Virus record (IMG/VR): IMGVR_UViG_3300033153_011579
DNA from: a virus
Taxonomy: Duplodnaviria > Heunggongvirae > Uroviricota > Caudoviricetes
DNA: 64,000 nt
Direction: 5' to 3' (one strand)
Made by a program: the position numbers and the translations under genes. Each line of letters begins with the position of its first letter. Position 1 is the first letter of the stretch. The notes beneath the pieces were generated by a model. That model saw only the letters and a program-made list of their open reading frames with translations, was not told where the DNA came from and ran no database searches. This document shows positions 2,051 to 24,217 of the stretch, piece after piece.

Positions 2051-2054
2051 GACG

Positions 2055-2470: not shown

Positions 2471-2505
2471 TGTAAGAGAATGCGGATTTTTCTGACACGG
2501 AGGAG
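2471..2505 (+). repeat. T1 element copy 4
   Basis: TGTAAGAGAATGCGGATTTTTCTGACACGGAGGAG. Confidence 0.85.
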
Positions 2506-2712: not shown

Positions 2713-2739
2713 GAGAATGTAGAGTTCTCTGACGAGGAG
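2708..2739 (+). repeat. T1 element copy 5 (TGAC-GAGGAG variant)
   Basis: TGTAAGAGAATGTAGAGTTCTCTGACGAGGAG; TAA = stop of upstream ORF. Confidence 0.85.
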
Positions 2740-2745
2740 CGGATT

Positions 2746-3075: not shown

Positions 3076-3085
3076 CACGGAGAAG
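3073..3085 (+). repeat. Stemless T1 3' half (TGACACGGAGAAG)
   Basis: TGA of TGACACG is the stop of 2746..3075; GGAGAAG serves ATG 3089. Confidence 0.75.
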
Positions 3086-3088
3086 AAA

Positions 3089-3853: not shown

Positions 3854-4339
3854 TTGGTTGAAATCACACACGACCGCCTCGTGAAAGCTGCAGCTATCTG
3901 GCTCGGCCAGAAGCATCGAGTGGTCTCCACCGAGCTCGTCTGCAGTACCGTCTCAGAGAACGCCGATGCTATCGGATGGGACGGTTACGGCAGGTGCATG
4001 GTCATCGAGTGCAAGGTCAGCCGCTCAGATTTTCTCGCCAACAAGCACAAACCACACGAGATCGTCGGTGACTCCATGGGGAACGAGCGCTGGTTCATGA
4101 CACCACCTGGTCTTGTCGAGCCAAAGGAGTTGCCGCGCAGCCACGGGCTCCTCGAGTACACGCCCAGTGGCCACGGGTCCGGCTACTTCATCCGCAAGGT
4201 CAAGAAAGCTCGGCCGCGGAAGAGGACGGTCGACCGGCTTTGGAACGAGAACCGAACACTGGTCGCCATCGCAGGCCGTGCTCTCGAGGCCGCTTCGAGG
4301 CTCAAGCCGCTCTGGCTCGGTGACGGCGAGGACGAGTAA
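3854..4339 (+). CDS. MmcB-like PD-(D/E)XK nuclease-fold protein (about 161 aa)
   Basis: ENADAIGWDGYGRCMVIECKVSRSDFLANKHK...RWFMTPPGLV motif pattern; TTG start 5 nt after GGGAGAAG; TAA in T1 copy 6. Confidence 0.55.
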   Translation: MVEITHDRLVKAAAIWLGQKHRVVSTELVCSTVSENADAIGWDGYGRCMVIECKVSRSDFLANKHKPHEIVGDSMGNERWFMTPPGLVEPKELPRSHGLLEYTPSGHGSGYFIRKVKKARPRKRTVDRLWNENRTLVAIAGRALEAASRLKPLWLGDGEDE

Positions 4340-4369
4340 GAGAATGCCGGATTCTATGACACGGAGGAG
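4337..4369 (+). repeat. T1 element copy 6
   Basis: TAAGAGAATGCCGGATTCTATGACACGGAGGAG; 28 nt upstream (CGGTGACGGCGAGGACGAG) also shared with copy 17. Confidence 0.9.
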
Positions 4370-4583: not shown

Positions 4584-4617
4584 TGTAAGAGAGTGATAGA
4601 TTCTCTGACACGGAGGA
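4584..4617 (+). repeat. T1 element copy 7
   Basis: TGTAAGAGAGTGATAGATTCTCTGACACGGAGGA. Confidence 0.9.
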
Positions 4618-4651
4618 TAAGTGGATCGACGGCAAGTACAAGGAATCCGGC

Positions 4652-5342: not shown

Positions 5343-5357
5343 GGAATGACACGTTCC
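5343..5357 (+). repeat. T2 hairpin copy a (GGAA-TGACACG-TTCC)
   Basis: GGAATGACACGTTCC immediately after stop of 5037..5339 and 20 nt before T1 copy 8. Confidence 0.8.
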
Positions 5358-5376
5358 TTACGAAGAAAACGAATTT

Positions 5377-5412
5377 TGTAAGAGAACCCCAAGATTCTCT
5401 GACATGGAGGAG
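5377..5412 (+). repeat. T1 element copy 8 (TGACATG variant)
   Basis: TGTAAGAGAACCCCAAGATTCTCTGACATGGAGGAG. Confidence 0.85.
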
Positions 5413-5418
5413 ATAGTG

Positions 5419-5682
5419 ATGTTCGACGATTGGTCAACTTGGCAACTAGTACTGACCGGTGTCTTCTACTTTTTTCTGTGTATGCTGATCGGATTTCTTG
5501 CCACAGCCGTCCCAGCCTGGGTGCAGCTGTGGAGGGTCAAACAAGAATGTCGGAGTCGGGTAGCTCAAGCCAATCGAAGGTTTGATCTGTCTACTCGTGA
5601 TTTGTGTAAGAGAATGTCGGTTTCTCTGACACGGAGAAGAGAATGGGAACGGAAAAAGATCAAGACAACGTCAGGCACCTGA
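5419..5682 (+). CDS. Membrane protein (87 aa) reading through T1 copy 9
   Basis: MFDDWSTWQLVLTGVFYFFLCMLIGFLATAVPAWV...; TAA of copy 9 is out of frame so the ORF overlaps the next gene by 40 nt. Confidence 0.5.
   Translation: MFDDWSTWQLVLTGVFYFFLCMLIGFLATAVPAWVQLWRVKQECRSRVAQANRRFDLSTRDLCKRMSVSLTRRREWERKKIKTTSGT
5605..5639 (+). repeat. T1 element copy 9
   Basis: TGTAAGAGAATGTCGGTTTCTCTGACACGGAGAAG. Confidence 0.9.
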
Positions 5683-5945
5683 ACCAGGGTGAGCAGGCTT
5701 TTGCCGATCTGATCTCTGTCCTCTCCGACGGGAAGGTCTCCCGCGTCGTGGTGGCCTACTACTGCGAGGAGGACGAGGACGAGGAAGCTGGCTGGTCCTA
5801 CGTCCGGGCCTCGAGACCACCGAGCCCCATCGGTAGCGCCATCGTAGAGGATGTTGGAGCCGCGTCCTTGTTATCCTTGTACGTCAGAGACTGGTACGAC
5901 TCCGCCATGGCGACCGAGACAACCCACGAGGTGCCGCGGAAGTGA
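5643..5945 (+). CDS. Hypothetical acidic protein (100 aa)
   Basis: ATG 4 nt after T1 copy 9; MGTEKDQDNVRHLNQGEQAF...CEEDEDEEAGW. Confidence 0.55.
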   Translation: MGTEKDQDNVRHLNQGEQAFADLISVLSDGKVSRVVVAYYCEEDEDEEAGWSYVRASRPPSPIGSAIVEDVGAASLLSLYVRDWYDSAMATETTHEVPRK

Positions 5946-5952
5946 GGACAAG

Positions 5953-6282
5953 ATGGCTGTTGAGGAAACAACTGAAGAGCTGGCCCTGGAGGGACGCTCG
6001 GTGGTCATCGAGGTGACCCGCTTTCCCAAGGGCACATCCCGCGGCCGGGTGACATCGCTAGCCGTCGGCATCGAGCCCGACGTGAAGAATGGGGGCGACC
6101 CCGTCGATGTGTCTCCGGCCCTCGTGGTCGACGCGCTGATCTACGCCCTGAAGCTGAACTACGACGCCGAGAGCCAGCACGGGTCAAACGAGACGGCCGA
6201 GGACTACGTCGAGGACGTGGCGCGGATCCTGCTGTCGCAGATCGAGAACGACGAGCCGAGCTCGCTCATGCGGGTTCACTGA
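5953..6282 (+). CDS. Hypothetical protein, paralogue B of 2746..3075 (109 aa)
   Basis: MAVEETTEELALEGRSVVIEVTRFPKGTSRGRVTSLAVGI...; stop TGA lies in TGACACG. Confidence 0.75.
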   Translation: MAVEETTEELALEGRSVVIEVTRFPKGTSRGRVTSLAVGIEPDVKNGGDPVDVSPALVVDALIYALKLNYDAESQHGSNETAEDYVEDVARILLSQIENDEPSSLMRVH

Positions 6283-6292
6283 CACGGAGGGG
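6280..6292 (+). repeat. Stemless T1 3' half (TGACACGGAGGGG)
   Basis: TGA of TGACACG is the stop of 5953..6282; SD serves ATG 6296. Confidence 0.75.
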
Positions 6293-6295
6293 AAG

Positions 6296-6493
6296 ATGAG
6301 CCTGTTTTTTACGACGACAATTCGCGAGGATGTTGAGATCGAGGTCGATGTGGAGTGCTCGAGGTGTGGAGCCGCTCTCACGGCAACATCCAGAAGCGAA
6401 CACATCGGCTCCCACGATGAAAACCACCGGCTGGTGATCCACCCGTGCACCACCTGCTACCCGGTTGGCGCGACGGATACCGAGAGCTCGTAA
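6296..6493 (+). CDS. Zinc-ribbon protein (65 aa)
   Basis: ...VECSRCGAAL...HPCTTCYP; TAA inside T1 copy 10. Confidence 0.55.
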   Translation: MSLFFTTTIREDVEIEVDVECSRCGAALTATSRSEHIGSHDENHRLVIHPCTTCYPVGATDTESS

Positions 6494-6523
6494 GAGAATG
6501 TGCGTTTCTCTGACACGGAGGAG
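6491..6523 (+). repeat. T1 element copy 10
   Basis: TAAGAGAATGTGCGTTTCTCTGACACGGAGGAG; TAA = stop of upstream ORF. Confidence 0.9.
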
Positions 6524-6529
6524 TGGCAA

Positions 6530-6802
6530 ATGAATAAAGAGAAGAAACTCAAGAAGCTCGGGATCCCAGACAAGACCGTAACCTGGGAAGAGTTCAAGGA
6601 ACTCCCGCAAACGCGTGGTGAAGGGATCTCCTTTAAAGCGCAAGGTGTTGGGGACTGGAAGGGTGAGTGGTTCTGGTTTGAGTCGCTAGGGGTGGTTGAG
6701 GTCGACCGCGCCTTGGCCGATGGCGAGGTTATCAGAGGAATGAAGGTCAACGCTGGGAACTGGCACAGGCTTGTTGTCGTTCCTCATAATTTTCCTCGCT
6801 GA
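6530..6802 (+). CDS. Hypothetical protein (90 aa)
   Basis: MNKEKKLKKLGIPDKTVTWEEF...; ATG 6 nt after SD (track ORF start 6500 lies in the hairpin loop). Confidence 0.6.
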   Translation: MNKEKKLKKLGIPDKTVTWEEFKELPQTRGEGISFKAQGVGDWKGEWFWFESLGVVEVDRALADGEVIRGMKVNAGNWHRLVVVPHNFPR

Positions 6803-6807
6803 CGACC

Positions 6808-6843
6808 TGTAAGAGAATGGAGCGTTCTATGACAGAGAAAGAG
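6808..6843 (+). repeat. T1 element copy 11 (degenerate 3' half)
   Basis: TGTAAGAGAATGGAGCGTTCTATGACAGAGAAAGAG. Confidence 0.7.
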
Positions 6844-7152
6844 ATCAAGCCGAAGATGGTGGATGGCGAGGCGGTGTGTTCTAAAAACTGTCCGCGTTAT
6901 GGGATTGAGCCATGCATGGGGCTTGTTGATTTATCCTCATGCGCCCCCTACTACCGCGCCCGTGTCGCCGAGCTCGAGGCACAGATTTCAAGAATCAGCG
7001 ATACGATCTACCGGGGTGCTCCGCTGTCGTGGGCAAAGGCTGAATTTCACGAGGTCGTGAGCGCCTGGGAGCTGGATCTCTGTATCGCTCTGAACTTATG
7101 CGGCTTCCGCGACGCCCTTGAGCATATTAAGGCGAAGAAAGATTCAGAGTAA
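6829..7152 (+). CDS. Hypothetical protein (about 107 aa; start uncertain 6817/6829/6856)
   Basis: ...CSKNCPRYG...APYYRARVAELEAQISR; TAA inside T1 copy 12. Confidence 0.5.
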   Translation: MTEKEIKPKMVDGEAVCSKNCPRYGIEPCMGLVDLSSCAPYYRARVAELEAQISRISDTIYRGAPLSWAKAEFHEVVSAWELDLCIALNLCGFRDALEHIKAKKDSE

Positions 7153-7180
7153 GAGAATTTTACGTTCTCTGACACGGAGA
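7150..7180 (+). repeat. T1 element copy 12
   Basis: TAAGAGAATTTTACGTTCTCTGACACGGAGA; TAA = stop of upstream ORF. Confidence 0.9.
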
Positions 7181-7185
7181 AAAAG

Positions 7186-7674
7186 ATGAAGACACAAAAA
7201 GAGATTGCAGACCGAGTGAGCAAGTTAGGCAAATCAGACTTCTTCGGGTTCAGGGCAGAGGTACTGATCGGCTACTTGGGTATGGAACTGCTGGTGCCGT
7301 TCTTGAAGGAGGGTGCCCGCAAGCGGTTTGAAGAAGACAAGGAGAATCCCTGGACTGACCCGGTTTTCACAGAAGATGAGGTCAAGAAGGACATGCTCGA
7401 CTATCTCAAATTCGCTTTTGAGAAGTGTTTAGACCACCGTGGTATCTCCGCGAACCGGAGCATCGAGAAACTCGTTGAGTGGGCGTGGATTCTGGGGAGG
7501 GACGACCTGGTGGAGTTCGCAGGAGAGGCAGGCAACTTCCGAAATTACGGTGCGCCGGTTCTAAAGAAATTCGCTGAGGGGTTCGAGATAGAGCTGCCCG
7601 AGGACGAGCGGTTTCACCGAATGGCTCGTGGAGAGCGCTGCGGAGCGGACTACGCTTGCGGTTGTAACGAGTGA
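7186..7674 (+). CDS. Hypothetical protein (162 aa)
   Basis: ORF track; ATG after T1 copy 12 SD. Confidence 0.7.
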   Translation: MKTQKEIADRVSKLGKSDFFGFRAEVLIGYLGMELLVPFLKEGARKRFEEDKENPWTDPVFTEDEVKKDMLDYLKFAFEKCLDHRGISANRSIEKLVEWAWILGRDDLVEFAGEAGNFRNYGAPVLKKFAEGFEIELPEDERFHRMARGERCGADYACGCNE

Positions 7675-7677
7675 GCT

Positions 7678-7712
7678 TGTAAGAGAATTTTGCATTCTCT
7701 GACACGGAGAAG
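7678..7712 (+). repeat. T1 element copy 13
   Basis: TGTAAGAGAATTTTGCATTCTCTGACACGGAGAAG; preceded by shared TGAGCT. Confidence 0.9.
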
Positions 7713-8054
7713 ATGATGAATCAGGATAGAGTAATCGAAATAGTGAGGGGCTGGCGGTGTCCTCACTGCTTCATGGAGTACGAGAACATTAAGGAAGCCC
7801 AGGAGTGCGATCAGCAGTGCTCCGCCTTCCTCGACGATGCTCCCCCAACTTGTGACTGGTGTGATCAGCCGGGAGAACACGAGAGTCCAGTCGAGGGGCT
7901 ACACTTTCTCATCAACTGTGGGCACTACATGTACGGTATGCATGAGGACGATAGTGGGGACGCTGAGAACGACCGCTACGAGACCGTCCAGCGGTTACGC
8001 GGTGTCGAGGCCCTTCCATGGGAGTACCCAGACGTCGGAGTGAAAGATGAATAA
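7713..8054 (+). CDS. Cys-rich (zinc-binding-like) protein (113 aa)
   Basis: WRCPHCFMEY...ECDQQC...CDWCDQPGEH. Confidence 0.6.
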   Translation: MMNQDRVIEIVRGWRCPHCFMEYENIKEAQECDQQCSAFLDDAPPTCDWCDQPGEHESPVEGLHFLINCGHYMYGMHEDDSGDAENDRYETVQRLRGVEALPWEYPDVGVKDE

Positions 8055-8376
8055 GCCAGAAGAAGACTTTGGTCTCGTGGTCGAACTTCACGGCCCGCGC
8101 GTGATTCATCGGTGCCGAGACTGTGATCACAGGTTCGGGTCTCCGCCCAGGCATTGGCAATGTAAGGCGCACCCGCGTCACCTGGAAAACCCAGAATATG
8201 CTCTTCATTTGGTCGGAAGAGAGTTGGATGAAAGCGAGCTCACAGACGGATATGGGTTTTGTGACCTCATCCGTGTGGCGACACAGCCGACGTGTCCTGA
8301 GTTCGAGCCGCGTAGACCGGCGAGTGCTGGATTTGTGTCTTGGTGGAGAAGGCTGTTGGCGAAGTTCGGTCTGTAA
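8047..8376 (+). CDS. Cys-rich protein (109 aa)
   Basis: HRCRDCDHRFG...; 8-nt overlap with upstream gene, GGAG upstream; TAA in T1 copy 14. Confidence 0.55.
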   Translation: MNKPEEDFGLVVELHGPRVIHRCRDCDHRFGSPPRHWQCKAHPRHLENPEYALHLVGRELDESELTDGYGFCDLIRVATQPTCPEFEPRRPASAGFVSWWRRLLAKFGL

Positions 8377-8400
8377 GAGAATTTATGATTCTCTGACACG
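8372..8400 (+). repeat. T1 element copy 14 (no canonical GGAGG after TGACACG)
   Basis: TGTAAGAGAATTTATGATTCTCTGACACG then AGATGGGTAGATG. Confidence 0.85.
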
Positions 8401-8410
8401 AGATGGGTAG

Positions 8411-8650
8411 ATGAAGAAGCGAGCAAAACGAGTCGAAAGATTCCATGTGAGGTGTCCCTTTTGTGGCGATCTCGTGGACATCATGACGTCGCTCTCTTGG
8501 TGCTCTGGGTGTTTTGTCGAGTGGTACCGTACACGAGCTTGCAATTACATTTTTGATACCGAGAGGAAGACCGAGAGGTTCGTGTGGGCCAAGGCGGTGC
8601 AGAAGTCCGGAGGCATGCGGATCGCCTCAGCCAACGAGGACGATGAGTAA
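8411..8650 (+). CDS. Zinc-ribbon protein (79 aa)
   Basis: VRCPFCGDLVDIMTSLSWCSGCFVEWY; TAA in T1 copy 15. Confidence 0.6.
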   Translation: MKKRAKRVERFHVRCPFCGDLVDIMTSLSWCSGCFVEWYRTRACNYIFDTERKTERFVWAKAVQKSGGMRIASANEDDE

Positions 8651-8679
8651 GAGAATTCAGGATTCTCTGACACGGAGGA
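8648..8679 (+). repeat. T1 element copy 15
   Basis: TAAGAGAATTCAGGATTCTCTGACACGGAGGA; perfect 7-bp stem, 5-nt loop. Confidence 0.95.
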
Positions 8680-8683
8680 TGAG

Positions 8684-9052
8684 ATGTGGAACAGAGTAAT
8701 ATTCGCGGGCTGGATGGTAGTCGCGTTGCTGATCGGGGTCCTATTCGGCGCAGGCCTCTACCAAACCTGGCCGGCTAATCCCGACGTGATCGAGGACACC
8801 GAACCCTCAAGCGGTCGGCCCCTAGAGATCGAGATCTGCTCAGACGCGGCTGACCACTGCAACGATTCGGAGGACTGCGTAGAGGACGTATTCTCGCGGT
8901 GTCTTTACCACCTCGGGACGCCAACAATGTCCGACTGTCACGAAGAGTGCGCAGGGATCATGAAGGAGCTAAGCGACAAGAACGATGCGTGCTGGGATAG
9001 CTTCATGAACTGCCAAGACGTACTCGACGAGGTGTGGCGAGAAGCGCTGTAA
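8684..9052 (+). CDS. N-terminally anchored Cys-rich protein (122 aa), paralogue of 32459..32836
   Basis: TM VIFAGWMVVALLIGVLFGAGLY; TMSDCHEECAGIMKELSDKNDACWDSFMNC aligns with TIETCREECAEIVRDLSRANDDLWERWLAC. Confidence 0.65.
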   Translation: MWNRVIFAGWMVVALLIGVLFGAGLYQTWPANPDVIEDTEPSSGRPLEIEICSDAADHCNDSEDCVEDVFSRCLYHLGTPTMSDCHEECAGIMKELSDKNDACWDSFMNCQDVLDEVWREAL

Positions 9053-9086
9053 GAGAATTGAGAATTCTCTGACACGGAAAAGAGGA
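9048..9086 (+). repeat. T1 element copy 16
   Basis: TGTAAGAGAATTGAGAATTCTCTGACACGGAAAAGAGGA. Confidence 0.9.
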
Positions 9087-9091
9087 ACTCA

Positions 9092-9349
9092 GTGACTGAC
9101 GACATCATCCAGATTCGAACCGCGCCAGGATGCCGCAAGGAAAAGCCGATGCGGTATCTGGTGTTCCGCATCGAGTGCTACTACCCAGCGGGTGGGTGGG
9201 ACGACCTCGAAGCGACGACCAACGACAAGGAAACCGCAATCGAACTGGCCAAGAAAATTGAGGCTGAATTCAGCAGCGGCGAGGTGATTGACCTCGATAC
9301 TGGGACTCGCCTTTACCCGCCGTGGCGCGGTGACGACGAGGACGAGTAA
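9092..9349 (+). CDS. Hypothetical protein (85 aa, GTG start)
   Basis: GTG 5 nt after AAGAGGA; ends ...PWRGDDEDE*; TAA in T1 copy 17. Confidence 0.55.
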   Translation: MTDDIIQIRTAPGCRKEKPMRYLVFRIECYYPAGGWDDLEATTNDKETAIELAKKIEAEFSSGEVIDLDTGTRLYPPWRGDDEDE

Positions 9350-9380
9350 GAGAATTGGCGATTCTCTGACACGGAGAGGA
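9347..9380 (+). repeat. T1 element copy 17
   Basis: TAAGAGAATTGGCGATTCTCTGACACGGAGAGGA; upstream CGGTGACGACGAGGACGAG matches copy 6 flank. Confidence 0.95.
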
Positions 9381-9382
9381 AG

Positions 9383-9634
9383 ATGACCAGGCTCGAACAG
9401 TACCAAAAACTCCACGAGATCTTCCTCGTGAACAGGTTTTCGGACGTGTTGACCGAGGCTGAAGAAGACGACCTGCTCTACGCCCTGGACGCCGTTTGGT
9501 GGCAGATGACGAGTGCGGAGCACGCCGAAGCGGAGAAGGACACCTGGATGTGGAATCGGGTGCTGCGGGGATGGTTCGCGCACATCGATCCCGCTGGCGG
9601 AACGAACAACCCAGTGATGAAGTGGAGCTTGTAA
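9383..9634 (+). CDS. Hypothetical protein (83 aa)
   Basis: ORF track; TAA in T1 copy 18. Confidence 0.6.
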   Translation: MTRLEQYQKLHEIFLVNRFSDVLTEAEEDDLLYALDAVWWQMTSAEHAEAEKDTWMWNRVLRGWFAHIDPAGGTNNPVMKWSL

Positions 9635-9666
9635 GAGAACTGACAATTCCCTTACACGAGGAGGAG
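9630..9666 (+). repeat. T1 element copy 18 (divergent right arm, TTACACG)
   Basis: TGTAAGAGAACTGACAATTCCCTTACACGAGGAGGAG. Confidence 0.8.
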
Positions 9667-9669
9667 AGG

Positions 9670-9945
9670 ATGAGGCGGAATCGCAGAACAATGGTGGCCA
9701 CAAGCACGATAGGTTCGTGGATGAGCCGAGTGTATAGACTGGAAGCTGAGAACGAAAAGCTTCGTACTGATCTTCTCTTCGCCAAAGCAAAGATTAAGGC
9801 GATCCGGGTACGTATTGAGATGGTCGATGATGGGGAGAGCTGTTACCAGTCACACGACGCGGTACCAGACATTCTCAACATTCTGCGTGGGGGGACGCTT
9901 TGGACAGGAAGTCCACAGTACGCCGCCGTCAAAAAACGCCTGTAA
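9670..9945 (+). CDS. Hypothetical coiled-coil protein (91 aa)
   Basis: MRRNRRTMVATSTIGSWMSRVYRLEAENEKLRTDLLFAKAKIK...; TAA in T1 copy 19. Confidence 0.55.
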   Translation: MRRNRRTMVATSTIGSWMSRVYRLEAENEKLRTDLLFAKAKIKAIRVRIEMVDDGESCYQSHDAVPDILNILRGGTLWTGSPQYAAVKKRL

Positions 9946-9975
9946 GAGAACCGACTGACTCTATTACACGAGGAG
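9941..9975 (+). repeat. T1 element copy 19 (divergent)
   Basis: TGTAAGAGAACCGACTGACTCTATTACACGAGGAG. Confidence 0.75.
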
Positions 9976-9982
9976 ATAATAG

Positions 9983-10465
9983 ATGCACGGGCTAGGAAGA
10001 AGAGGAAACCGCCGGAAGAAACGCCTGAAGAAACATCGAGGCCGTACTCCTGCTAGAGTTTCGGCATCCAGCAAGGTCTACAACACTACCTCCAGGACCG
10101 TCGTCAAGACTGCTGCGCCCAGCACCGTCGTCACGTTCGACGACGTAGCTGATCTGGCCGAGGCGACCCTCGACGAGGAGAACGTGACCGCGCTGTTCAT
10201 GCGGTACGACAATAACATCAGGCCAACGCTCTTCTACACTGCCTACGCGGAAACTCCGTCTGGGCGCGTCTTCCTCCAGGCAGTCCATGTACTGTCGAAA
10301 GATGAGATCTACGAGAACCCAAAACACCCGCTGCCCTGTTACAGGGACGGCAAGGACATGAGGTGCCCCTATCCGCAGGAGCACATCATCGACAGGGCCG
10401 TTGAGTACTGGGAGTCCCGAGGGATTGACGTCTACGAGGGCACGGTGGAGATGAAGATTTTGTAA
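9983..10465 (+). CDS. Hypothetical protein with basic N-terminus (160 aa)
   Basis: MHGLGRRGNRRKKRLKKHRGRTPARV...; TAA in T1 copy 20. Confidence 0.6.
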   Translation: MHGLGRRGNRRKKRLKKHRGRTPARVSASSKVYNTTSRTVVKTAAPSTVVTFDDVADLAEATLDEENVTALFMRYDNNIRPTLFYTAYAETPSGRVFLQAVHVLSKDEIYENPKHPLPCYRDGKDMRCPYPQEHIIDRAVEYWESRGIDVYEGTVEMKIL

Positions 10466-10494
10466 GAGAACCTTCTATTCCCTGACATGGAGGA
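10461..10494 (+). repeat. T1 element copy 20
   Basis: TGTAAGAGAACCTTCTATTCCCTGACATGGAGGA. Confidence 0.8.
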
Positions 10495-10499
10495 TTGAG

Positions 10500-10733
10500 A
10501 TGAAAACGGGAGAACGCGAACTGTTCAAGGTAACCGGACGACCTGGTCGCCGTATCTGGCGCAAACAAGCCGGAGCGCGAGGGTACCGACCCATCTGGAC
10601 CTCCGACTACGTTGAGGAGGTTGACGGGAAGTTCTTCTGCACGATTCGGAGTGAGTCCGAGAACGACCTGCCGATGGAGCAGCACGATAACCTTCAAGAC
10701 GCGCTCGAGTGGTTGATGAGGGATCGGACGTAA
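10500..10733 (+). CDS. Hypothetical protein (77 aa)
   Basis: ORF track; TAA in T1 copy 21. Confidence 0.6.
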   Translation: MKTGERELFKVTGRPGRRIWRKQAGARGYRPIWTSDYVEEVDGKFFCTIRSESENDLPMEQHDNLQDALEWLMRDRT

Positions 10734-10762
10734 GAGAATCAACGATTCTCTGACATGGAGGA
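10731..10762 (+). repeat. T1 element copy 21
   Basis: TAAGAGAATCAACGATTCTCTGACATGGAGGA. Confidence 0.9.
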
Positions 10763-10766
10763 CAGG

Positions 10767-10961
10767 ATGAAACGCACGCTGTTGACCGAGATCGACTTTG
10801 ACCGTCAGAGCTGTCGGGTCATCGAGGCGGAGATCATCAAGTGCAACACCTGTAAGGGTAGCGGTTGGAAAGAGGTTTCGACGCACCGCGGAAACTACAG
10901 ACGCCGCTGTGCTCAGTGCCACGGCACAGGCAAGGTGCTGGTGGGACCGAAGGTTCGATGA
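10767..10961 (+). CDS. DnaJ-type zinc-finger-like protein (64 aa)
   Basis: Two CxxCxGxG motifs: CNTCKGSG and CAQCHGTG. Confidence 0.6.
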   Translation: MKRTLLTEIDFDRQSCRVIEAEIIKCNTCKGSGWKEVSTHRGNYRRRCAQCHGTGKVLVGPKVR

Positions 10962-10962
10962 C

Positions 10963-10996
10963 TGTAAGAGAACAGACGATTCTCTGACACGAGGAG
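10963..10996 (+). repeat. T1 element copy 22
   Basis: TGTAAGAGAACAGACGATTCTCTGACACGAGGAG. Confidence 0.9.
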
Positions 10997-11002
10997 AGAA
11001 GG

Positions 11003-11254
11003 ATGAATTTCAGTAACGAGCAAATGACAGAGTGGCTGTCGGAGGTTCCGGAAGCTACCAGCGTACGCTGCGTGGCTATCCCTCCGTACATCAGTAAAGA
11101 GATGAAGGAGCGGCCAGTGATTCCGTGGGATCTGCTTACCCGAGAAGTCAACAACAAGATAGGTGATGGTGACCGCGTACTCGGGATTCGTGCTGCGGGG
11201 GCCAACTCCTACGGCAATTACTGGATCATCATTTGGGTTGGCAACAAAGAGTGA
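11003..11254 (+). CDS. Hypothetical protein (83 aa)
   Basis: ORF track; ATG after T1 copy 22 SD. Confidence 0.6.
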   Translation: MNFSNEQMTEWLSEVPEATSVRCVAIPPYISKEMKERPVIPWDLLTREVNNKIGDGDRVLGIRAAGANSYGNYWIIIWVGNKE

Positions 11255-11257
11255 GCT

Positions 11258-11290
11258 TGTAAGAGAAACTAATATTCTCTGACGGAGGAG
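11258..11290 (+). repeat. T1 element copy 23
   Basis: TGTAAGAGAAACTAATATTCTCTGACGGAGGAG; preceded by shared TGAGCT. Confidence 0.85.
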
Positions 11291-11293
11291 AGC

Positions 11294-11527
11294 ATGGACA
11301 ACGATACCAAAAGACTGTGTGGCAACTGCTTCTGGTTTGATCAAGAGCTCTGTCGACGACTGCCACCGCGCATGATTGACCAGGTAGATCTTTATGAAAA
11401 AGATAGTGAGTTCAACACCTGGAATGCCAGTTACGCAGACGACTACACCTCTTGGCCAGTTGTAGAAGAGAAAGCCTGGTGCGGAGAATGGCGATCGAAG
11501 GAAGACGGCTGGCCCGTCGGTAAGTAA
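11294..11527 (+). CDS. Cys-rich hypothetical protein (77 aa)
   Basis: CGNCFWFDQELCRRLPP...WCGEW; TAA in T1 copy 24. Confidence 0.6.
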   Translation: MDNDTKRLCGNCFWFDQELCRRLPPRMIDQVDLYEKDSEFNTWNASYADDYTSWPVVEEKAWCGEWRSKEDGWPVGK

Positions 11528-11556
11528 GAGAATCAAACATTCTCTGACACGAGGAG
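11525..11556 (+). repeat. T1 element copy 24
   Basis: TAAGAGAATCAAACATTCTCTGACACGAGGAG. Confidence 0.9.
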
Positions 11557-11559
11557 AAG

Positions 11560-11673
11560 ATGATGGAAATTCTAATTTTTTGGCTGTGCTTTTGTGGACT
11601 CGGAGCCGTTGGTATATTGGTAGCGTCCTTGGTGATCCTCAGTGAGGAACGTCAACGAAACGGTCGCCAGTAA
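11560..11673 (+). CDS. Small hydrophobic peptide (37 aa; below ORF-track cutoff)
   Basis: MMEILIFWLCFCGLGAVGILVASLVILSEERQRNGRQ*; exactly bounded by T1 copies 24 and 25. Confidence 0.4.
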   Translation: MMEILIFWLCFCGLGAVGILVASLVILSEERQRNGRQ

Positions 11674-11701
11674 GAGAATCAGCACGTTCCCTGAAAGGAA
11701 G
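11671..11701 (+). repeat. T1/T2 hybrid element (copy 25)
   Basis: TAAGAGAATCAGCACGTTCCCTGAAAGGAAG: T1 left half joined to the ACGTTCCCTGAAAGGA tail seen in T2 copy e. Confidence 0.8.
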
Positions 11702-11714
11702 ATTGGAGAACAAA

Positions 11715-11927
11715 ATGTCGAAGAACACGGTCACGCAGCACGTTTTGGTTGATTCCCATGTTGAGTGCTTCCCTGAGGAATTCCTCGAAGCACTTCTCGC
11801 AGTTTGTCCGGCTCCCTTGGCACCGGACAGTCTTAAACAACTCCGTGACATAGGGAGAGTCCAGTTGAGCCTCTGGCTTTCCCCGGAGGACTTGAAGCGC
11901 TGGACAGGTAAAGCGCCAGGGGAATGA
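11715..11927 (+). CDS. Hypothetical protein (70 aa)
   Basis: MSKNTVTQHVLVDSHVECFPEEF...; stop TGA lies in T2 copy b. Confidence 0.5.
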   Translation: MSKNTVTQHVLVDSHVECFPEEFLEALLAVCPAPLAPDSLKQLRDIGRVQLSLWLSPEDLKRWTGKAPGE

Positions 11928-11938
11928 CACTTTCCCTG
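11919..11938 (+). repeat. T2 hairpin copy b
   Basis: GGGGAATGACACTTTCCCTG; TGA = stop of upstream ORF. Confidence 0.8.
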
Positions 11939-11976
11939 TGCCTACACAACAACCGCCTAGTGGGGCAAGGAGTAGG

Positions 11977-12330
11977 ATGATGACAGAGCATACATTGACC
12001 GTTGGTGGAAGCGAGGTCGTGGTTTCGAGTAACCCTGTTTCAAGGGACCTTGTCGGCTCGGACCGCAGCTTCGGAGATGAACGCGCGCACCCATGTCCGA
12101 ACTGTAGCAAAAATAGTCTGCGCTACCATTTCCTCGACTACAGGCCTGCGCTGTCGTGGGCCTGCGTCGAGTGTGGCTATGCTGAGCACCCGCCGATTGA
12201 AAAGTTGGTTGCCGATGGGTACTCCCCGCAGAAGGTAGAGGAGGATTGGTCGACCTGCATTTACCCAAAGGAGTGGATGCTTTACTCCCCGCTTGAGCGG
12301 TTAGCGTCACCACAAACACGAAAGGATTAG
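11977..12330 (+). CDS. Zinc-ribbon protein (117 aa; track start 11938 is GTG)
   Basis: HPCPNCSKNS...WACVECGYAEHP; AAGGAG 6 nt before ATGATG. Confidence 0.5.
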   Translation: MMTEHTLTVGGSEVVVSSNPVSRDLVGSDRSFGDERAHPCPNCSKNSLRYHFLDYRPALSWACVECGYAEHPPIEKLVADGYSPQKVEEDWSTCIYPKEWMLYSPLERLASPQTRKD

Positions 12331-12334
12331 AACG

Positions 12335-12685
12335 ATGGGTTTGTTTTCACCACCAGGCCAAGCTCCAGATCTCCGAGAGGCGAAAGATGTTAGAGTTATC
12401 GTCACCCTATGCAAGGACGAAGAACCAGGTGATGGATATGTCCGAACACAGATAACCGCTCTCGATGAACTCGAGGAGGGTGAAGAGGGTTTAAATATTA
12501 ACGGAGACAACGTCTTTGAGGCACTGGTTTACGCGCTGTACCACCACTTTGTAAACGAGCACGAGGTTGGGCATTCTTGTTGCCTTACTCATTTTATCGA
12601 AGAGATCACAGACCTACTGGAGCGTGTCAACGAGACTGACGGAAACGAAAAGGTCAGTCGGAGTTCTGAAGAACACACACATTAA
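12335..12685 (+). CDS. Hypothetical protein (116 aa), AT-richer
   Basis: ORF track; visibly lower GC than array average. Confidence 0.55.
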   Translation: MGLFSPPGQAPDLREAKDVRVIVTLCKDEEPGDGYVRTQITALDELEEGEEGLNINGDNVFEALVYALYHHFVNEHEVGHSCCLTHFIEEITDLLERVNETDGNEKVSRSSEEHTH

Positions 12686-12727
12686 TAAGGGTTATTGCAT
12701 CAGCTGCGGACCGTCGACCCTGTATGA

Positions 12728-12746
12728 GGAATGACACGTTCCCTGG
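12728..12746 (+). repeat. T2 hairpin copy c (in non-coding gap)
   Basis: GGAATGACACGTTCCCTGG. Confidence 0.8.
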
Positions 12747-12793
12747 TGGGAGAACGTCGAACTGGAGTGAGAGGAGTTTGAATGTTTAAAGCA

Positions 12794-12944
12794 CGTCGAG
12801 TTCTCCGAGCGCGCGGTGAGTGTGGACGGGGGCCTGCGTTGGGTTTTTGTGACGAATTCTCCTTAGCAGGCCTTCTACGTGGAGTGCTTCAACCATTCCA
12901 TCGACCTACTCGACCCACTCACCGCGCGCTCGGAGAACTCGACG
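12794..12944. repeat. 29-bp perfect inverted repeat flanking a 93-nt spacer
   Basis: 12794-12822 CGTCGAGTTCTCCGAGCGCGCGGTGAGTG is the exact reverse complement of 12916-12944; nested GGCCTGC/GCAGGCC pair in the spacer. Confidence 0.9.
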
Positions 12945-12971
12945 GCACGCAGTCGGGGGAAGGAGAAAAGA

Positions 12972-13181
12972 ATGCGAAAATATCGATTTCAGCACGATGA
13001 GGATGGTGACGTGCTGTGGGTCTACATCGCCGGTAACTCCGCGTACCCAGGGGAGCACCGCTTCGATCCACCAGAAGTTTTGGAGGCCTACATCGGTTAC
13101 CTTCGAGCATGTAAAGGTGATCAACTTGATTCTGATGTAGTTATCGCCTGGAAGGACAGTGCTTGGGGTCCGGATGTCTGA
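12972..13181 (+). CDS. Hypothetical protein (69 aa)
   Basis: MRKYRFQHDEDGDVLWVYIAG...; GGAAGGAGAAAAGA upstream; stop abuts T2 copy d. Confidence 0.5.
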   Translation: MRKYRFQHDEDGDVLWVYIAGNSAYPGEHRFDPPEVLEAYIGYLRACKGDQLDSDVVIAWKDSAWGPDV

Positions 13182-13196
13182 TGACACGTTCCCTGG
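13179..13196 (+). repeat. T2 copy d (left arm missing)
   Basis: TGATGACACGTTCCCTGG. Confidence 0.65.
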
Positions 13197-13232
13197 TACC
13201 CCTATGCCCAAACACTAGGCAGGAGGAATGAG

Positions 13233-13412
13233 ATGTCTGAAAAGAAAGCTGTGGTTCAACGTGTTGTCATCCACGAACTCTTGGATGCAGGTGTGGTGGC
13301 GATCGAAGGACGTGATCTTGTGTTCGAGTCCCCCTGGGACAAGGGCTCAGAGGCGATGATTGCTTTGATGAAGAAAGGCCTCGTCAAAGACGTGGTCCGG
13401 GACAGGGAATGA
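13233..13412 (+). CDS. Hypothetical protein (59 aa; below ORF-track cutoff)
   Basis: MSEKKAVVQRVVIHELLDAGVVAIEGRDLVFESPWDKGSEAMIALMKKGLVKDVVRDRE*; AGGAGGAATGAG upstream; TGA in T2 copy e. Confidence 0.45.
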   Translation: MSEKKAVVQRVVIHELLDAGVVAIEGRDLVFESPWDKGSEAMIALMKKGLVKDVVRDRE

Positions 13413-13423
13413 CACGTCCCCTG
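13405..13423 (+). repeat. T2 hairpin copy e
   Basis: GGGAATGACACGTCCCCTG followed by AAAGGAG SD and ATG 13438. Confidence 0.8.
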
Positions 13424-13437
13424 AAAGGAGAAGCCCG

Positions 13438-13713
13438 ATGGGTCAAACAACATCCGACAATCCAGGTGGAGTGAAGTCGCTCTTCGAAGATAACAACTCA
13501 CAAAAAGCTACTGCCTCCACGCTCGCCGGATACCTCGTCGAAGATGGTGCTTGGATGGTATTGCCAGATGGGGACCGCGAGATCACTATTGTGCGGCACA
13601 GAGACTATGGCACGATCATGTATCTCATTGATGGTCCAGGCGAGGATATAAGAAGCGGCGTAGTAAAAACGGTGCGAGAACTCGCTGACGCCATCGCCGT
13701 TGGTGGGGAATGA
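13438..13713 (+). CDS. Hypothetical protein (91 aa)
   Basis: ORF track; stop TGA in T2 copy f. Confidence 0.55.
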   Translation: MGQTTSDNPGGVKSLFEDNNSQKATASTLAGYLVEDGAWMVLPDGDREITIVRHRDYGTIMYLIDGPGEDIRSGVVKTVRELADAIAVGGE

Positions 13714-13726
13714 CACGTTCCCTAGG
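13705..13726 (+). repeat. T2 hairpin copy f
   Basis: GGGGAATGACACGTTCCCTAGG, 10 nt before T1 copy 26. Confidence 0.85.
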
Positions 13727-13736
13727 AACTTGAGCT

Positions 13737-13770
13737 TGTAAGAGAATCTCGCATTCTCTGACACGGAGGA
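13737..13770 (+). repeat. T1 element copy 26
   Basis: TGTAAGAGAATCTCGCATTCTCTGACACGGAGGA; preceded by shared TGAGCT. Confidence 0.95.
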
Positions 13771-13774
13771 AAAA

Positions 13775-13954
13775 ATGGACGAACACATGAGATATTTAGG
13801 CTGCCTGAAACTACTTGAGGATTGCTCACCTTACGTACCGGAAGAGATTCGTGAGGGTATCGAGATGGCTCACGACGATGCTGTAGAGGCCAGCAACGGG
13901 ACCTTGCGGGCTCGCAGTGTGCTCGATCGACGAGAGATCGAGGTGGTGACGTAA
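13775..13954 (+). CDS. Hypothetical protein (59 aa; below ORF-track cutoff)
   Basis: MDEHMRYLGCLKLLEDCSPYVPEEIREGIEMAHDDAVEASNGTLRARSVLDRREIEVVT*; bounded by T1 copies 26 and 27. Confidence 0.5.
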   Translation: MDEHMRYLGCLKLLEDCSPYVPEEIREGIEMAHDDAVEASNGTLRARSVLDRREIEVVT

Positions 13955-13984
13955 GAGAATCCGCACGTTCTCTTACACGGAGGA
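13952..13984 (+). repeat. T1 element copy 27
   Basis: TAAGAGAATCCGCACGTTCTCTTACACGGAGGA. Confidence 0.85.
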
Positions 13985-13985
13985 A

Positions 13986-14189
13986 ATGATGGGTAAAGAT
14001 GTGAGGACCAAGACATTCGCTATGATGTTTCGGGAGCGCTGCGTGATCATGCGGGATGCTTTCGACCGCCGTGACGTAGAGGGCTTTGCTACTGCTCTCA
14101 AGGACGTTGAGCGCCTGATGCGAGAGCACGCCGAGGGGTGCGGCTGCTCACAATGCCGAGAGACGCTGAAGATCATGAATGAGGTGTAA
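13986..14189 (+). CDS. Hypothetical protein (67 aa)
   Basis: ORF track; ...HAEGCGCSQCRETLK; TAA in T1 copy 28. Confidence 0.55.
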   Translation: MMGKDVRTKTFAMMFRERCVIMRDAFDRRDVEGFATALKDVERLMREHAEGCGCSQCRETLKIMNEV

Positions 14190-14219
14190 GAGAATACACA
14201 CGTCCTTTAACACGGAGGA
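14185..14219 (+). repeat. T1 element copy 28 (degenerate right arm)
   Basis: TGTAAGAGAATACACACGTCCTTTAACACGGAGGA. Confidence 0.75.
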
Positions 14220-14223
14220 AACG

Positions 14224-14460
14224 ATGAGTACTGTTCTGGATAATGACCAAAAATTGATGGTAATTCTGGCGGTTGTGGTGGCACTCTTCCTGTTAATTTT
14301 GGCTGGTGGGAAGCTTATTGGTGATGTTTTGTCACCCCCAACACCCCAAGAGGACTGTATGAACCAGGCCCAGCAGCTGGACAGCGAGGAGTCTGAGAAA
14401 GAAGCCTACTACAAGTGTCTTGAGTCTTTAGGGCTGGAAGATCCTAAAAAGGCTTTGTAA
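14224..14460 (+). CDS. N-terminally anchored small protein (78 aa)
   Basis: MSTVLDNDQKLMVILAVVVALFLLILAGGKLIG...; TAA in T1 copy 29. Confidence 0.55.
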   Translation: MSTVLDNDQKLMVILAVVVALFLLILAGGKLIGDVLSPPTPQEDCMNQAQQLDSEESEKEAYYKCLESLGLEDPKKAL

Positions 14461-14490
14461 GAGAATCTTCCGTTCTCTGACACGGAGAAG
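14456..14490 (+). repeat. T1 element copy 29 (last)
   Basis: TGTAAGAGAATCTTCCGTTCTCTGACACGGAGAAG. Confidence 0.9.
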
Positions 14491-15164: not shown

Positions 15165-15528
15165 CGTGTTCCTTCCCGGGCGAGGCTGGCTACTCGTGAA
15201 GCCACCGGAGTCGGAAGCCGACACAGGAGAGGTCTACACTGTCGACGTGATCGAGCTCGCCGCCGAGGAGAAGTCCGCGTGCCCGCAGTTCCAGGAGGAG
15301 ACAGCGATACGCGGTGCTGGCGGCGCTCCGATGATGACCGTGGACATCGTGCTCCCGAAGCGCTGCTACGTCGGTGACCGGTGGAGCGTACTAAAGGACA
15401 GAGACGCAGTGCGCGAGGTACCCGACCTGGACGGTGCCCTGCTCAAGACCGAGGAGGTGATCGGCTGGGAGTGGGAGGACGACCGTCTCAAGCCGCCTCC
15501 TGGCGTCGTAGAGGACCTGGACTCCTGA
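15148..15528 (+). CDS. Hypothetical protein (126 aa)
   Basis: GGAGGTG upstream of ATG; 17-nt overlap with upstream gene. Confidence 0.55.
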   Translation: MFLKNSVFLPGRGWLLVKPPESEADTGEVYTVDVIELAAEEKSACPQFQEETAIRGAGGAPMMTVDIVLPKRCYVGDRWSVLKDRDAVREVPDLDGALLKTEEVIGWEWEDDRLKPPPGVVEDLDS

Positions 15529-24215: not shown

Positions 24216-24217
24216 CG

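Follow-up and report, generated by a model that had tools for sequence, protein, structure and literature searches.

Stop codon, hairpin and ribosome-binding site combined in intergenic linkers with an invariant ACA core in the early operon of an uncultured phage

Start-associated sequences (SAS/ESAS) of cluster K mycobacteriophages share a 13-bp motif, GGGATAGGAGCCC, located 3-7 bp before start codons (PMC3203893), while the PeSLs of T4-type phages are short conserved stem-loop repeats among ORFans of a hypervariable early region (PMC2839356, PMC4122927). Here we describe two related forms of intergenic linker, T1 and T2, which carry the heptamer TGACACG and punctuate an early gene array at the left end of a 64,000-nucleotide stretch of Caudoviricetes DNA (IMG/VR record IMGVR_UViG_3300033153_011579; this entire stretch is referred to as the window). 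Their closest counterparts are SAS/ESAS in form and the PeSL cassettes in genomic setting. How dozens of tiny phage early ORFans are expressed and exchanged as a set is poorly understood, and the array provides an unusually clean case, with about 30 linkers, nearly identical to one another, each of which unites a stop codon with a hairpin and a ribosome-binding site. Tentatively, with a probability of roughly 40%, we read T1 and T2 as intercistronic mRNA linkers whose ACA tip is a recognition or switch module and which are recombination joints as well.

T1 is present at 28 junctions, plus one hybrid, and is built in the order GTAAGAGAAT, a loop of 5 nt (sometimes 6), ATTCTCTGACACGGAGGA, 3-6 nt and ATG. 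The stop codon of the upstream gene is in most copies the TAA within GTAAGAG and lies otherwise not more than 6 nt before T1, with a stop-to-start gap of exactly 33 nt in ten cases and of 31-41 nt in the others. The hairpin thus delimited, hairpin A, has a stem of 7-10 bp, the full 10-bp palindrome being GTAAGAGAAT / ATTCTCTKAC, and is followed by ACACG, the Shine-Dalgarno sequence GGAGGA and ATG. As the palindrome spans 10 bp, it takes in bases 1-4 of the heptamer as the foot of hairpin A, and ACG is left as the spacer ahead of the Shine-Dalgarno sequence; in 28 of 34 copies the G of TGAC and the middle A of TAA form an A.G mismatch, and a T in place of the G restores the pair. Arms and tail are conserved, the tail ACA(C/T)GGAGGA in 30 or more copies, and the loops are essentially random in sequence. 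Loop length varies from 4 to 6 nt, as a hairpin would allow but a dimeric duplex-DNA site or a recombinase core site would not. Apart from three copies (5378, 10964 and 14186), the first loop base follows a block pattern, being G in the stretch 1.1-6.8 kb, T in 7.1-9.6 kb and C in 9.9-14.5 kb, and loops of neighbouring copies are often near-identical, such as GCGGA twice or TTTAC and TTTGC, which points to local copying of the linkers.

Like SAS/ESAS, T1 is a short asymmetric motif that holds a Shine-Dalgarno sequence a few bases before starts, has a copy number of 10-20 or higher and a single orientation, and is restricted to the non-structural half of the genome; in both systems, an imperfect inverted repeat whose spacer varies stands ahead of about half of the copies or more, and the upstream stop codon sometimes overlaps. 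The form found here, 10-bp arms around a 4-6 nt spacer, all on the + strand and between 1.1 and 14.5 kb only, is SAS-like without implying homology, as the sequences are unrelated: GGGATAGGAGCCC is combined with 17-bp repeats, ACACGGAGGA with 10-bp arms, and the motif that stands here in place of the 13-bp motif, (T)GACACGGAGGA, has a similar position before ATG and an unrelated sequence. Furthermore, SAS lie in unusually long intergenic gaps (>50 bp), whereas the T1 gap has a fixed length of 33 nt, stop codon included; a second family that displays the motif in a loop has not been described for SAS, and hosts and phage lineages are unrelated.

The initial annotation had singled out the heptamer, rather than either stem, as the common denominator of the linkers. 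The window contains 27 exact copies of TGACACG where 11.2 are expected, and 25 of these occurrences lie on the + strand between 1157 and 14478, all at gene junctions (18 in T1 tails, five in T2 and two in joints without a stem), the remaining two being located at 12623 (-) and 35270 (+). None is found in 14.8 kb of additional genome of the same phage, of which 5.4 kb extend further left (contig L017) and 9.4 kb further right (contig L031). Counted by strand and junction, the motif is consequently junction-bound and restricted to one strand of one 14-kb operon; as it is almost absent elsewhere in the approximately 79 kb examined overall, it does not show the similar density off junctions or on both strands which would have spoken against a junction role. 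Avoidance of the heptamer elsewhere was considered and set aside, since one occurrence against 3.5-6.4 expected (Markov model, 15.2-64 kb, both strands) is marginal, model-dependent and no more than a weak depletion; coding frames in any case lack TGA. The only reverse-complement heptamer (CGTGTCA on the + strand, 12623-12629) lies inside the open reading frame (ORF) 12335-12685, approximately 100 nt upstream of the T2 copy at 12728, with whose loop it could pair, probably by chance.

Within the heptamer it is ACA that is constant, in 38 of 38 copies (T1, T2 and joints) from two phages, the second being the only relative with T1, represented by contig L023 (same phage as L024 and L027) with six T1 copies and no T2; the conserved core of the linker copies is ACACGGAGGA. 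As ACA is invariant across two phages whose rec1 proteins, products of the tyrosine-recombinase-like gene that borders the array on the left, are only 58% identical, selection acts on the tail. The initial view of a common denominator holds for confinement to junctions and the ACA core and fails for TGA, which is not conserved: of the six copies of the relative, three read TTACACG and the others TGACACG, TGACATG and TTACATA, one copy each. The heptamer TGA is indeed, as had been noted, the upstream stop at 11925, 13410 and 13711 (ORFs 11703-11927, 13233-13412 and 13438-13713); at T2 13178 the actual stop is the TGA one codon before the heptamer (ORF 12972-13181), and at T2 5343 the heptamer TGA is out of frame. 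Given TTACACG in three of the six copies of the relative, and an orthologue of a stemless-joint gene that ends CAC TAA CTTAGGAGG in another relative (L022), the role of TGA as stop codon is incidental. TGA is likewise the stop codon at the two stemless joints at 3073 and 6280, which had been taken as separate instances; they are the 3' ends of two paralogous genes (ORFs 2746-3075 and 5953-6282; 90% amino-acid identity, 91.6% DNA identity over 347 nt) and therefore represent one duplication event, not two independent cases. L022, which has no T1 hairpin at all, contains one isolated exact TGACACGGAGGAG (8691-8703) in a gene 3' end, where it is the ribosome-binding site of the next gene.

T2 had been proposed as a second hairpin family with the heptamer in the loop of a different stem. 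A search with GGAATGACACGTTCCCTG at up to 3 mismatches gave exactly six matches, all on the + strand (5343, 11921, 12728, 13178, 13406 and 13707), compared with 0.12 on average in dinucleotide shuffles. All six sites are real, although the copy at 11919 reads TGACACT instead of TGACACG and the copy at 13178 has no 5' arm; the 3' arm of the copy at 13406 is GTCCCC. The tandem arrangement of T2 immediately 5' of T1, reported for two places, was recovered (5343/5378 and 13705/13738), with T2 5343 located 4 nt past the stop of ORF 5037-5339 and 18 nt ahead of T1; where T1 does not abut the stop codon (stops 5339 and 13713), the T2 hairpin does. At 12728, the upstream gene (ORF 12335-12685) ends 37 nt before T2.

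T2 is not a separate stem family, since MAFFT aligns it in register with T1, especially with the copies that have a 6-nt loop. GTATGAGGAATGACACGTTCCCTG and GTAAGAGAATCCGCACGTTCTCTT match at 16 of 24 positions (~67%, hand count on the MAFFT alignment), the T2 arms GGGAA/TTCCC differ from the arms GAGAA/TTCTC of T1 by a single compensated pair, uncompensated TTCCC arms are present in several T1 copies, those of the relative included, and graded intermediates between T1 and T2 are found at 13951, 14186, the hybrid at 11670 and L023 12288. Being in register, the T2 heptamer therefore occupies the position of the T1 loop, and loops of the 6-nt-loop T1 relatives of T2 already end in GCACG. The hybrid, in which the annotated fusion of a T1 left half to a T2 tail could be confirmed, is the left border of a T2 block (11.7-13.7 kb) whose right border is T2 followed by T1. 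T2 is a young T1-derived offshoot instead of an independent family, and its block looks like a module that was recombined into the array via the hairpin.

The T1 heptamer is flanked by the complementary 5-mers UUCUC and GAGGA. Besides the 5' arm, CGGAGGA too is complementary to the 3' arm of hairpin A (AUUCUCUG), so that a second, mutually exclusive hairpin, B' (UUCUCUG-ACA-CGGAGRA), can form, which buries the Shine-Dalgarno sequence and whose top, a U.G pair, a G-C pair and an ACA triloop, together constitutes the heptamer. T2 folds as GGGAAUG-ACA-CGUUCCC, with the same top as B' on a flipped lower stem and without a competing fold. The structural contexts in which the heptamer appears, which had been described as different, need consequently not differ, as B' of T1 gives the same 7-bp stem and ACA triloop as T2. 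The predicted energies are -6 to -7 kcal/mol for hairpin A and -5.2 to -5.7 kcal/mol for B' in canonical copies, B' being approximately 1-2 kcal/mol weaker than hairpin A; with shuffled tails B' averages -1.9 kcal/mol (standard deviation 1.7), and the T2 hairpins with their ACA triloop reach -8.7 to -13.7 kcal/mol. In a joint 17-nt alignment of T1 and T2 (38 copies), 85.7% of cells pair versus 64.5% in shuffles, with a covariation score of 0.545 versus 0.183 that was reached by none of 500 shuffles. The predicted accessibility of the Shine-Dalgarno sequence in the ensemble is 0.41 for T1-linked genes and 0.49 for the other array genes; in this model, the approximately 41% at T1 fit a partial occlusion of the Shine-Dalgarno sequence. 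A role of T1 as an insulator that keeps the Shine-Dalgarno sequence open was ruled out, as accessibility is not above that of genes without T1, and an extended Shine-Dalgarno pairing of ACACG was equally discarded, as ACACG is not complementary to the usual 16S rRNA tail.

In the reading we favour, the ACA tip would be recognized by a trans-acting factor that binds RNA, whether protein or nuclease. T1 would show the tip only in conformer B', with the Shine-Dalgarno sequence hidden, and a factor bound to it would lock B' and thereby shut off translation of all linked early genes together, with a logic as in the MS2 coat-protein operator or T4 RegA, whereas T2 copies would be constitutive binding sites at ORF ends. 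We infer that B' forms in vivo, that such a factor exists and that its effect has this direction. The hairpin at each stop may also stabilize the upstream cistron, and the linkers would double as recombination joints by which cassettes are gained, lost and duplicated between two recombinase paralogues, rec1 and rec2. A role at the RNA level is favoured because the loop length varies, the linker is built of translation signals and a hairpin abuts almost every stop codon; a role as joints is suggested by the linkers being the sole DNA common to unrelated genes. Common to the MS2/Qbeta coat operators, T4 RegA and the present proposal is protein-RNA binding at the ribosome-binding site that turns translation off; these precedents concern single sites (MS2) or loosely conserved ones (RegA), as compared with approximately 30 near-identical sites here, for which the binding protein is putative. 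Were the tip a binding site, a single factor could switch the whole 14-kb host-takeover operon on or off at translation, and the linkers would be a compact natural counterpart of synthetic operon insulators.

Several observations weigh against this reading. The joint covariation is essentially a single contrast of T1 versus T2, the T2 stem is already explained by descent from hairpin A, and within T1 alone neither A (85.9% paired) nor B' (87.0%) covaries beyond shuffles. Four of the six copies of the relative begin with TTACA(C/T), which breaks the G-C pair of the tip, weakens B' to approximately -3 kcal/mol and extends hairpin A instead. T2 13178 is stemless, one T2 copy has a change in the loop, and the constancy of the T2 loop could be mere youth, as T2 occurs only in this phage and mostly in one 2-kb block; with changes at 1 of 42 loop sites versus 4 of 55 arm sites, loops and arms of T2 do not differ significantly. 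No RNA-binding protein or nuclease was recognized by Pfam among the array proteins, all of them ORFans, and no Rfam match at the gathering threshold was obtained in the 64 kb. The sole sub-threshold Rfam match, Fluoride riboswitch at 11920-11984 (20.1 bits versus 34, E = 0.11), overlaps T2 11919 and is taken as chance; a hammerhead was rejected for want of an Rfam match, although T2 13178 contains CUGAUGA. A wobble and strand-asymmetry test on the T1 arms was uninformative (approximately five wobble-keeping versus seven pair-breaking changes, one compensatory).

In a rival account, which we consider rather unlikely, recombination among family members left the heptamer in the T2 loop, where nothing recognizes it. 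A T1 5' arm would first have been fused to the tail GACACG; the CACG held in common would then have allowed the 3' arm to be taken from a copy with a 6-nt loop (...GCAC + GTTC), after which T2 would have spread locally and not yet diverged. It agrees with the alignment of T2 in register with 6-nt-loop T1 copies whose loops end in GCACG, with the intermediates and the hybrid (11670, 13951, 14186 and L023 12288), with the clustering of T2 within 2 kb and its absence from the relative, with young copies looking alike in the way neighbouring T1 copies share near-identical loops, and with a loop conservation not significantly above that of the arms. On the other hand, TGA matches beyond CACG in the same order and length as in the tail, for which we estimate a chance of approximately 1-5%, ACA is invariant in all 38 copies while T1 loops are randomized, and T2 copies are not simple recent segmental duplicates, since their flanking genes are unrelated and their arms already differ.

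Approximately 48 ORFs lie on the + strand between ~80 and 16,500, among them ~45 small genes between rec1 and rec2, all on one strand and all ORFans by Pfam. The array is most simply one long polycistronic early transcript, because internal promoters or terminators are not in excess: between 1 and 16500, four sigma-70 promoter-like sites compare with 5.2 expected, none of them in a T1 or T2 copy, one weak promoter match begins at the stemless joint, at 3072, and 19 terminator-like sites compare with 14.1 expected, none being a + strand T1 or T2 hairpin. Herein the linkers depart from PeSLs, which consist of a strong sigma-70 promoter and a terminator stem-loop, whereas T1 and T2 have neither promoter consensus nor U-tract, their hairpins being followed by GACACGG instead of a T run, and carry with stop codon and Shine-Dalgarno sequence a translational, not a transcriptional, punctuation. 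A PeSL-like promoter/terminator reading was discarded, as neither signal is enriched in the array.

Early polycistronic RNA is known to be processed in the phages T7 (RNase III) and T4 (RegB at GGAG), and a host or phage endoribonuclease may likewise cut at or beside ACA in the single-stranded heptamer, leaving at T1 hairpin A as a protective 3' end and the Shine-Dalgarno sequence near a new 5' end, and cutting within the loop at T2. A hairpin at nearly every stop codon, at T1 junctions not more than 6 nt past it, a heptamer that is single-stranded in the hairpin A fold and a long operon without internal promoters would be in line with such processing, which we still consider unlikely, because Pfam recognized no nuclease gene among the array proteins and a cut in the T2 loop would destroy the hairpin supposed to protect the upstream gene. 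REPs, which protect upstream mRNA from 3' exonucleases, and BIMEs share with the linkers the form of an imperfect palindrome (20-40 nt) that closely follows a stop codon within an operon, many copies and a conserved 5' foot (GTAG in REP, GTAAG here). Those elements are chromosomal, occur in both orientations and are tied to RAYT transposases, whereas the present ones are phage-borne, have a single orientation and are fused to a ribosome-binding site; no RAYT (HUH Y1) domain was found among the window proteins scanned.

Leftward, on L017, a sigma-70-family gene, a cluster of GTTTCCCGTG repeats, a good promoter and three small genes precede rec1. The early-operon promoter is sigma-70-like (TTGACC, 17 nt, TATGAT; L017 ~4232-4266). 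Just upstream of it (L017 4114-4190, ~1.3 kb left of the window), GTTTCCCGTG is present as four to six direct and inverted repeats, which are kept in all relatives (L023 7149-7217, L020 12-62, L029 4665, L025 113) and probably represent an operator or iteron set; GTTTCCCGTG and the T2 3' arm TTCCCTG are alike only after deletion of one base. Directly upstream of the -35 element, at L017 4217-4238, lies a tailless T1-like hairpin (CAGGGAAT-CCCCT-ATTCTCT). The sigma-70-family protein (regions r2 and r4 only, similar to extracytoplasmic function, ECF, sigma factors; L017 3433-4107) is encoded by the first gene of the array-bearing strand.

That the linkers might be repressor sites in duplex DNA, which with a TGACACG core block elongation in the lysogen, is suggested by the 13-bp stoperators of cluster A mycobacteriophages (PMC9283540), equally short asymmetric motifs in short intergenic spaces, oriented along transcription and often overlapping stop codons; recombinase genes and the operator-like repeat cluster at the early promoter would point to a temperate lifestyle. 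We regard this as very doubtful, as stoperators are genome-wide and match the operator of the early promoter, whereas the motif here is confined to one operon, the repeats at the promoter belong to another motif (GTTTCCCGTG) and this reading gives no account of the hairpin arms; the heptamer is absent from the promoter region (L017 4090-4310), with only one copy outside the array in ~65 kb. A regulator of the CsrA/RsmA type, whose sites have a GGA core set in ACA-R-GGA and often lie in a loop, could bind the T1 tail, such that host CsrA represses the early RNA or the RNA acts as a sponge, and the tail ACA-C-GGA-GGA, conserved as ACA(C/T)GGAGGA in 30 or more copies, fits the consensus RUACARGGAUGU from systematic evolution of ligands by exponential enrichment (PMC7652899 and others); the idea is nonetheless far-fetched, since T2 keeps ACACG without GGA after it and GGAGGA is the ordinary Shine-Dalgarno sequence of this phage anyway. 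Still more remote is the idea that each T1 is a promoter for the phage sigma factor, with GAAT, a 16-nt spacer and CGG as -35 and -10 elements. The sigma-70-family gene does head the operon, and the GAGAAT-N16-CGG spacing resembles ECF promoters; RNA synthesis would begin no earlier than the Shine-Dalgarno sequence, the palindrome would be unexplained, a 6-nt loop alters the spacing, and T2 lacks a matching -10 element. T1 fits this geometry loosely; the reading was rejected on account of T2 and of the start position.

Homologues of rec1 with 58-62% identity were found in five contig sets, plus one in an 81-kb contig of a relative that has been binned and deposited as a Planctomycetota metagenome-assembled genome. 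The order common to relatives is rec1, a variable stretch, a 220-aa gene, in most a 125-aa gene (not called in L029/L030) and rec2, the variable stretch containing no gene in L029 and L020, two in L022, ~6 in L025, ~9 in L023 and ~45 in the window. Homologous cassettes take different positions in different relatives. Three of the six L023 loops are identical to window loops (among them CCGCAC, shared by T1 13951 and the L023 12288 copy) and two more are one edit away (p <= 0.003), although the genes flanking the shared loops are not homologous. With the array genes mutually unrelated bar one paralogous pair among 48 ORFs compared, gene duplication was ruled out as origin of the repeats. In L023, a ribosomal protein S12-like gene (PF00164, 9849-10232) lies two genes past rec1, just before the first T1.

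The hybrid, a tail-bounded duplication, the loops shared between phages and the hypervariable setting make the linkers sites of DNA exchange, and a hyperplastic region as in PeSL phages, with 0 to ~45 genes between rec1 and the 220-aa gene, is found here; copies of PeSLs likewise are recombination joints for gene gain, loss and replacement. The earlier idea of a crossover site draws support from the hybrid at 11670, which resembles a crossover inside the hairpin, the heptamer itself being only a putative site of binding, cleavage or crossover. DNA joints might even be the main function, either through homologous exchange between copies, as with PeSLs, or as rec1/rec2 sites with 10-bp inverted arms and a 5-6 bp spacer that sets partner compatibility, in which case the linkers would illustrate the growth of a hypervariable region from 0 to 45 genes. 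The flanking of a region of 0, 0, 2, ~6, ~9 or ~45 genes in six related phages by rec1 and rec2, the crossover inside the loop of the hybrid, the one duplication bounded by linker tails, the identity of three of six relative loops amid unrelated flanking genes and the moving cassettes speak for it. We judge it improbable as the main function, since T1 is entirely absent from relatives whose gene content varies in this same place, a spacer varying from 4 to 6 nt is incompatible with recombinase core sites, conservation runs past the palindrome into ACACG and the Shine-Dalgarno sequence and includes the stop codon, all expression signals, and no structural variants were seen between samples.

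A more specific proposal, which we deem quite unlikely, sees in the array a phage-borne, integron-like cassette platform on which rec1 and rec2 recombine at the T1 and T2 palindromes. The identity of the spacer (5-6 bp between 10-bp arms) would decide which sites pair, and such pairing would explain why spacers differ within the genome, are kept identical between diverged phages and contain the crossover of the hybrid; an inserted cassette would automatically receive a stop for its upstream neighbour and its own ribosome-binding site. Integrons likewise have promoterless small ORFs in one orientation beside a tyrosine recombinase, with imperfect palindromes of variable centre. However, attC sites comprise 57-141 bp with R''/L''/L'/R' boxes and GTTRRRY, whereas T1 is 25 bp plus a tail with translation signals; the inverse core RYYYAAC and core GTTRRRY were not found in the T1 palindrome of 25-26 bp, in which GTAAGAG and CTCTGAC have a partial likeness only. 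The integron integrase gene is divergent, with IntI-specific insertion, and accompanied by attI and Pc, whereas rec1 is co-directional and has a weak PF00589 match, and the rec1/rec2 pair also exists in relatives without linkers. As none of the defining sequences and signals examined was found, the linkers are not a member of any named family; they belong to the class of phage intergenic regulatory or recombination repeats, of which they are a new variant.

Table 1. Coordinates of linkers and bordering recombinase-like genes in the window.
Feature	Coordinates	Strand	Remarks
rec1, tyrosine-recombinase-like	82..969	+	left border of linker array; weak PF00589 match; homologues carry PF00589
T1 linker	1136..1169	+	loop GATGA
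T1 linker	1733..1766	+	loop GCGCA; 5' arm GGGAAT
T1 linker	2018..2051	+	loop GCGGA; 5' arm GGGAAT
T1 linker	2472..2505	+	loop GCGGA; 3' arm TTTTTCT
T1 linker	2709..2742	+	shortened tail TGACGAGGAG
Stemless joint	3073..3088	+	TGACACGGAGAAGAAA before ATG 3089; TGA is stop of ORF 2746-3075
T1 linker	4336..4369	+	3' arm ATTCTAT
T1 linker	4585..4618	+	loop GATAG
T2 copy, subtype a	5343..5360	+	GAGGAAUG-ACA-CGUUCCUU hairpin; -8.7 kcal/mol vs -3.2 in shuffles
T1 linker	5378..5412	+	6-nt loop; tail TGACATG; directly follows T2 at 5343
T1 linker	5606..5639	+	
Stemless joint	6280..6295	+	TGACACGGAGGGGAAG before ATG 6296; ends ORF 5953-6282
T1 linker	6490..6523	+	
T1 linker	6809..6842	+	Shine-Dalgarno (GGAG) of next gene in variable loop, its ATG (6829) in 3' arm
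T1 linker	7149..7182	+	minimum-energy fold is alternative hairpin B'
T1 linker	7679..7712	+	minimum-energy fold is alternative hairpin B'
T1 linker	8373..8406	+	
T1 linker	8647..8680	+	exact consensus
T1 linker	9049..9082	+	
T1 linker	9346..9379	+	
T1 linker	9631..9664	+	TTACACG; loop TGACA same as in relative's L023 11055 copy
T1 linker, degenerate	9942..9975	+	TTACACGAGGAG
T1 linker	10462..10495	+	ATTCCCTGACATGG
T1 linker	10730..10763	+	loop CAACG same as in relative's L023 10411 copy
T1 linker	10964..10997	+	
T1 linker	11259..11292	+	shortened tail TGACGGAGGAG
T1 linker	11524..11557	+	
Hybrid linker	11670..11704	+	T1 5' arm GTAAGAGAAT, loop CAGCAC, T2-type 3' arm and tail GTTCCCTGAAAGGAAG
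T2 copy	11919..11938	+	loop TGACACT; -13.7 kcal/mol; TGA 11925-11927 is stop of ORF 11703-11927
T2 copy, subtype a	12722..12745	+	preceded by GTATGAG, in register with T1 GTAAGAG
T2 copy without 5' arm	13178..13195	+	CTGA-TGACACG-TTCCCTG; CTGA replaces GGAA; no hairpin, energy equals shuffles
T2 copy	13405..13423	+	GGGAATGACACGTCCCCTG; then AAAGGAG (Shine-Dalgarno), ATG 13438; TGA is stop of ORF 13233-13412
T2 copy	13705..13724	+	TGA is stop of ORF 13438-13713; 13 nt ahead of T1 13738; -12.6 kcal/mol
T1 linker	13738..13771	+	exact consensus; directly follows T2 at 13705
T1 linker, T1/T2 intermediate	13951..13985	+	6-nt loop CCGCAC, 3' arm GTTC, TTACACG
T1 linker	14186..14220	+	6-nt loop ACACAC, 3' arm GTCC, TAACACG
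T1 linker, last	14457..14490	+	precedes conserved 223-aa gene
rec2, rec1 paralogue	15471..16487	+	right border, after conserved 223-aa and 126-aa genes

The window, which we treat as most of one uncultured phage genome, has no near match among deposited phages (megablast, 50,697 phage records); 16-mer scans of IMG/VR for DNA relatives gave single chance matches only and a protein-based search there no usable match, while its sequence is also found on the Joint Genome Institute metagenome contigs L016, L017, L028 and L031; the longest contig on record measures 82 kb. Scans of metagenome, genome and viral collections with the T1 pattern matched only L027, and the pattern is absent from 185,579 reference genomes. 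rec1 has HRFRHW...LLYY motifs, and the catalytic tyrosine motif may be missing from rec2. Compared with L028, which comes from another sample, the window shows only eight differences in 13.7 kb, all within 125 nt of rec2 (16026-16150); seven of the eight are changes to G, either a two-colour sequencing artefact or a local hypervariable patch.

Most of the large proteins of the window have no Pfam or PHROG match; those with matches include, among others, a PurA-like adenylosuccinate synthetase, a DUF5131 protein, a GP88-like protein and a response-regulator protein. The PurA-like gene (26259-27368, -) encodes a protein 33-35% identical to phage PurA-like or 2-aminooxy adenylosuccinate synthetase homologues and lies close to the radical-SAM-like DUF5131 gene (23469-24611, -), a pair which may be a pointer to modified DNA bases.

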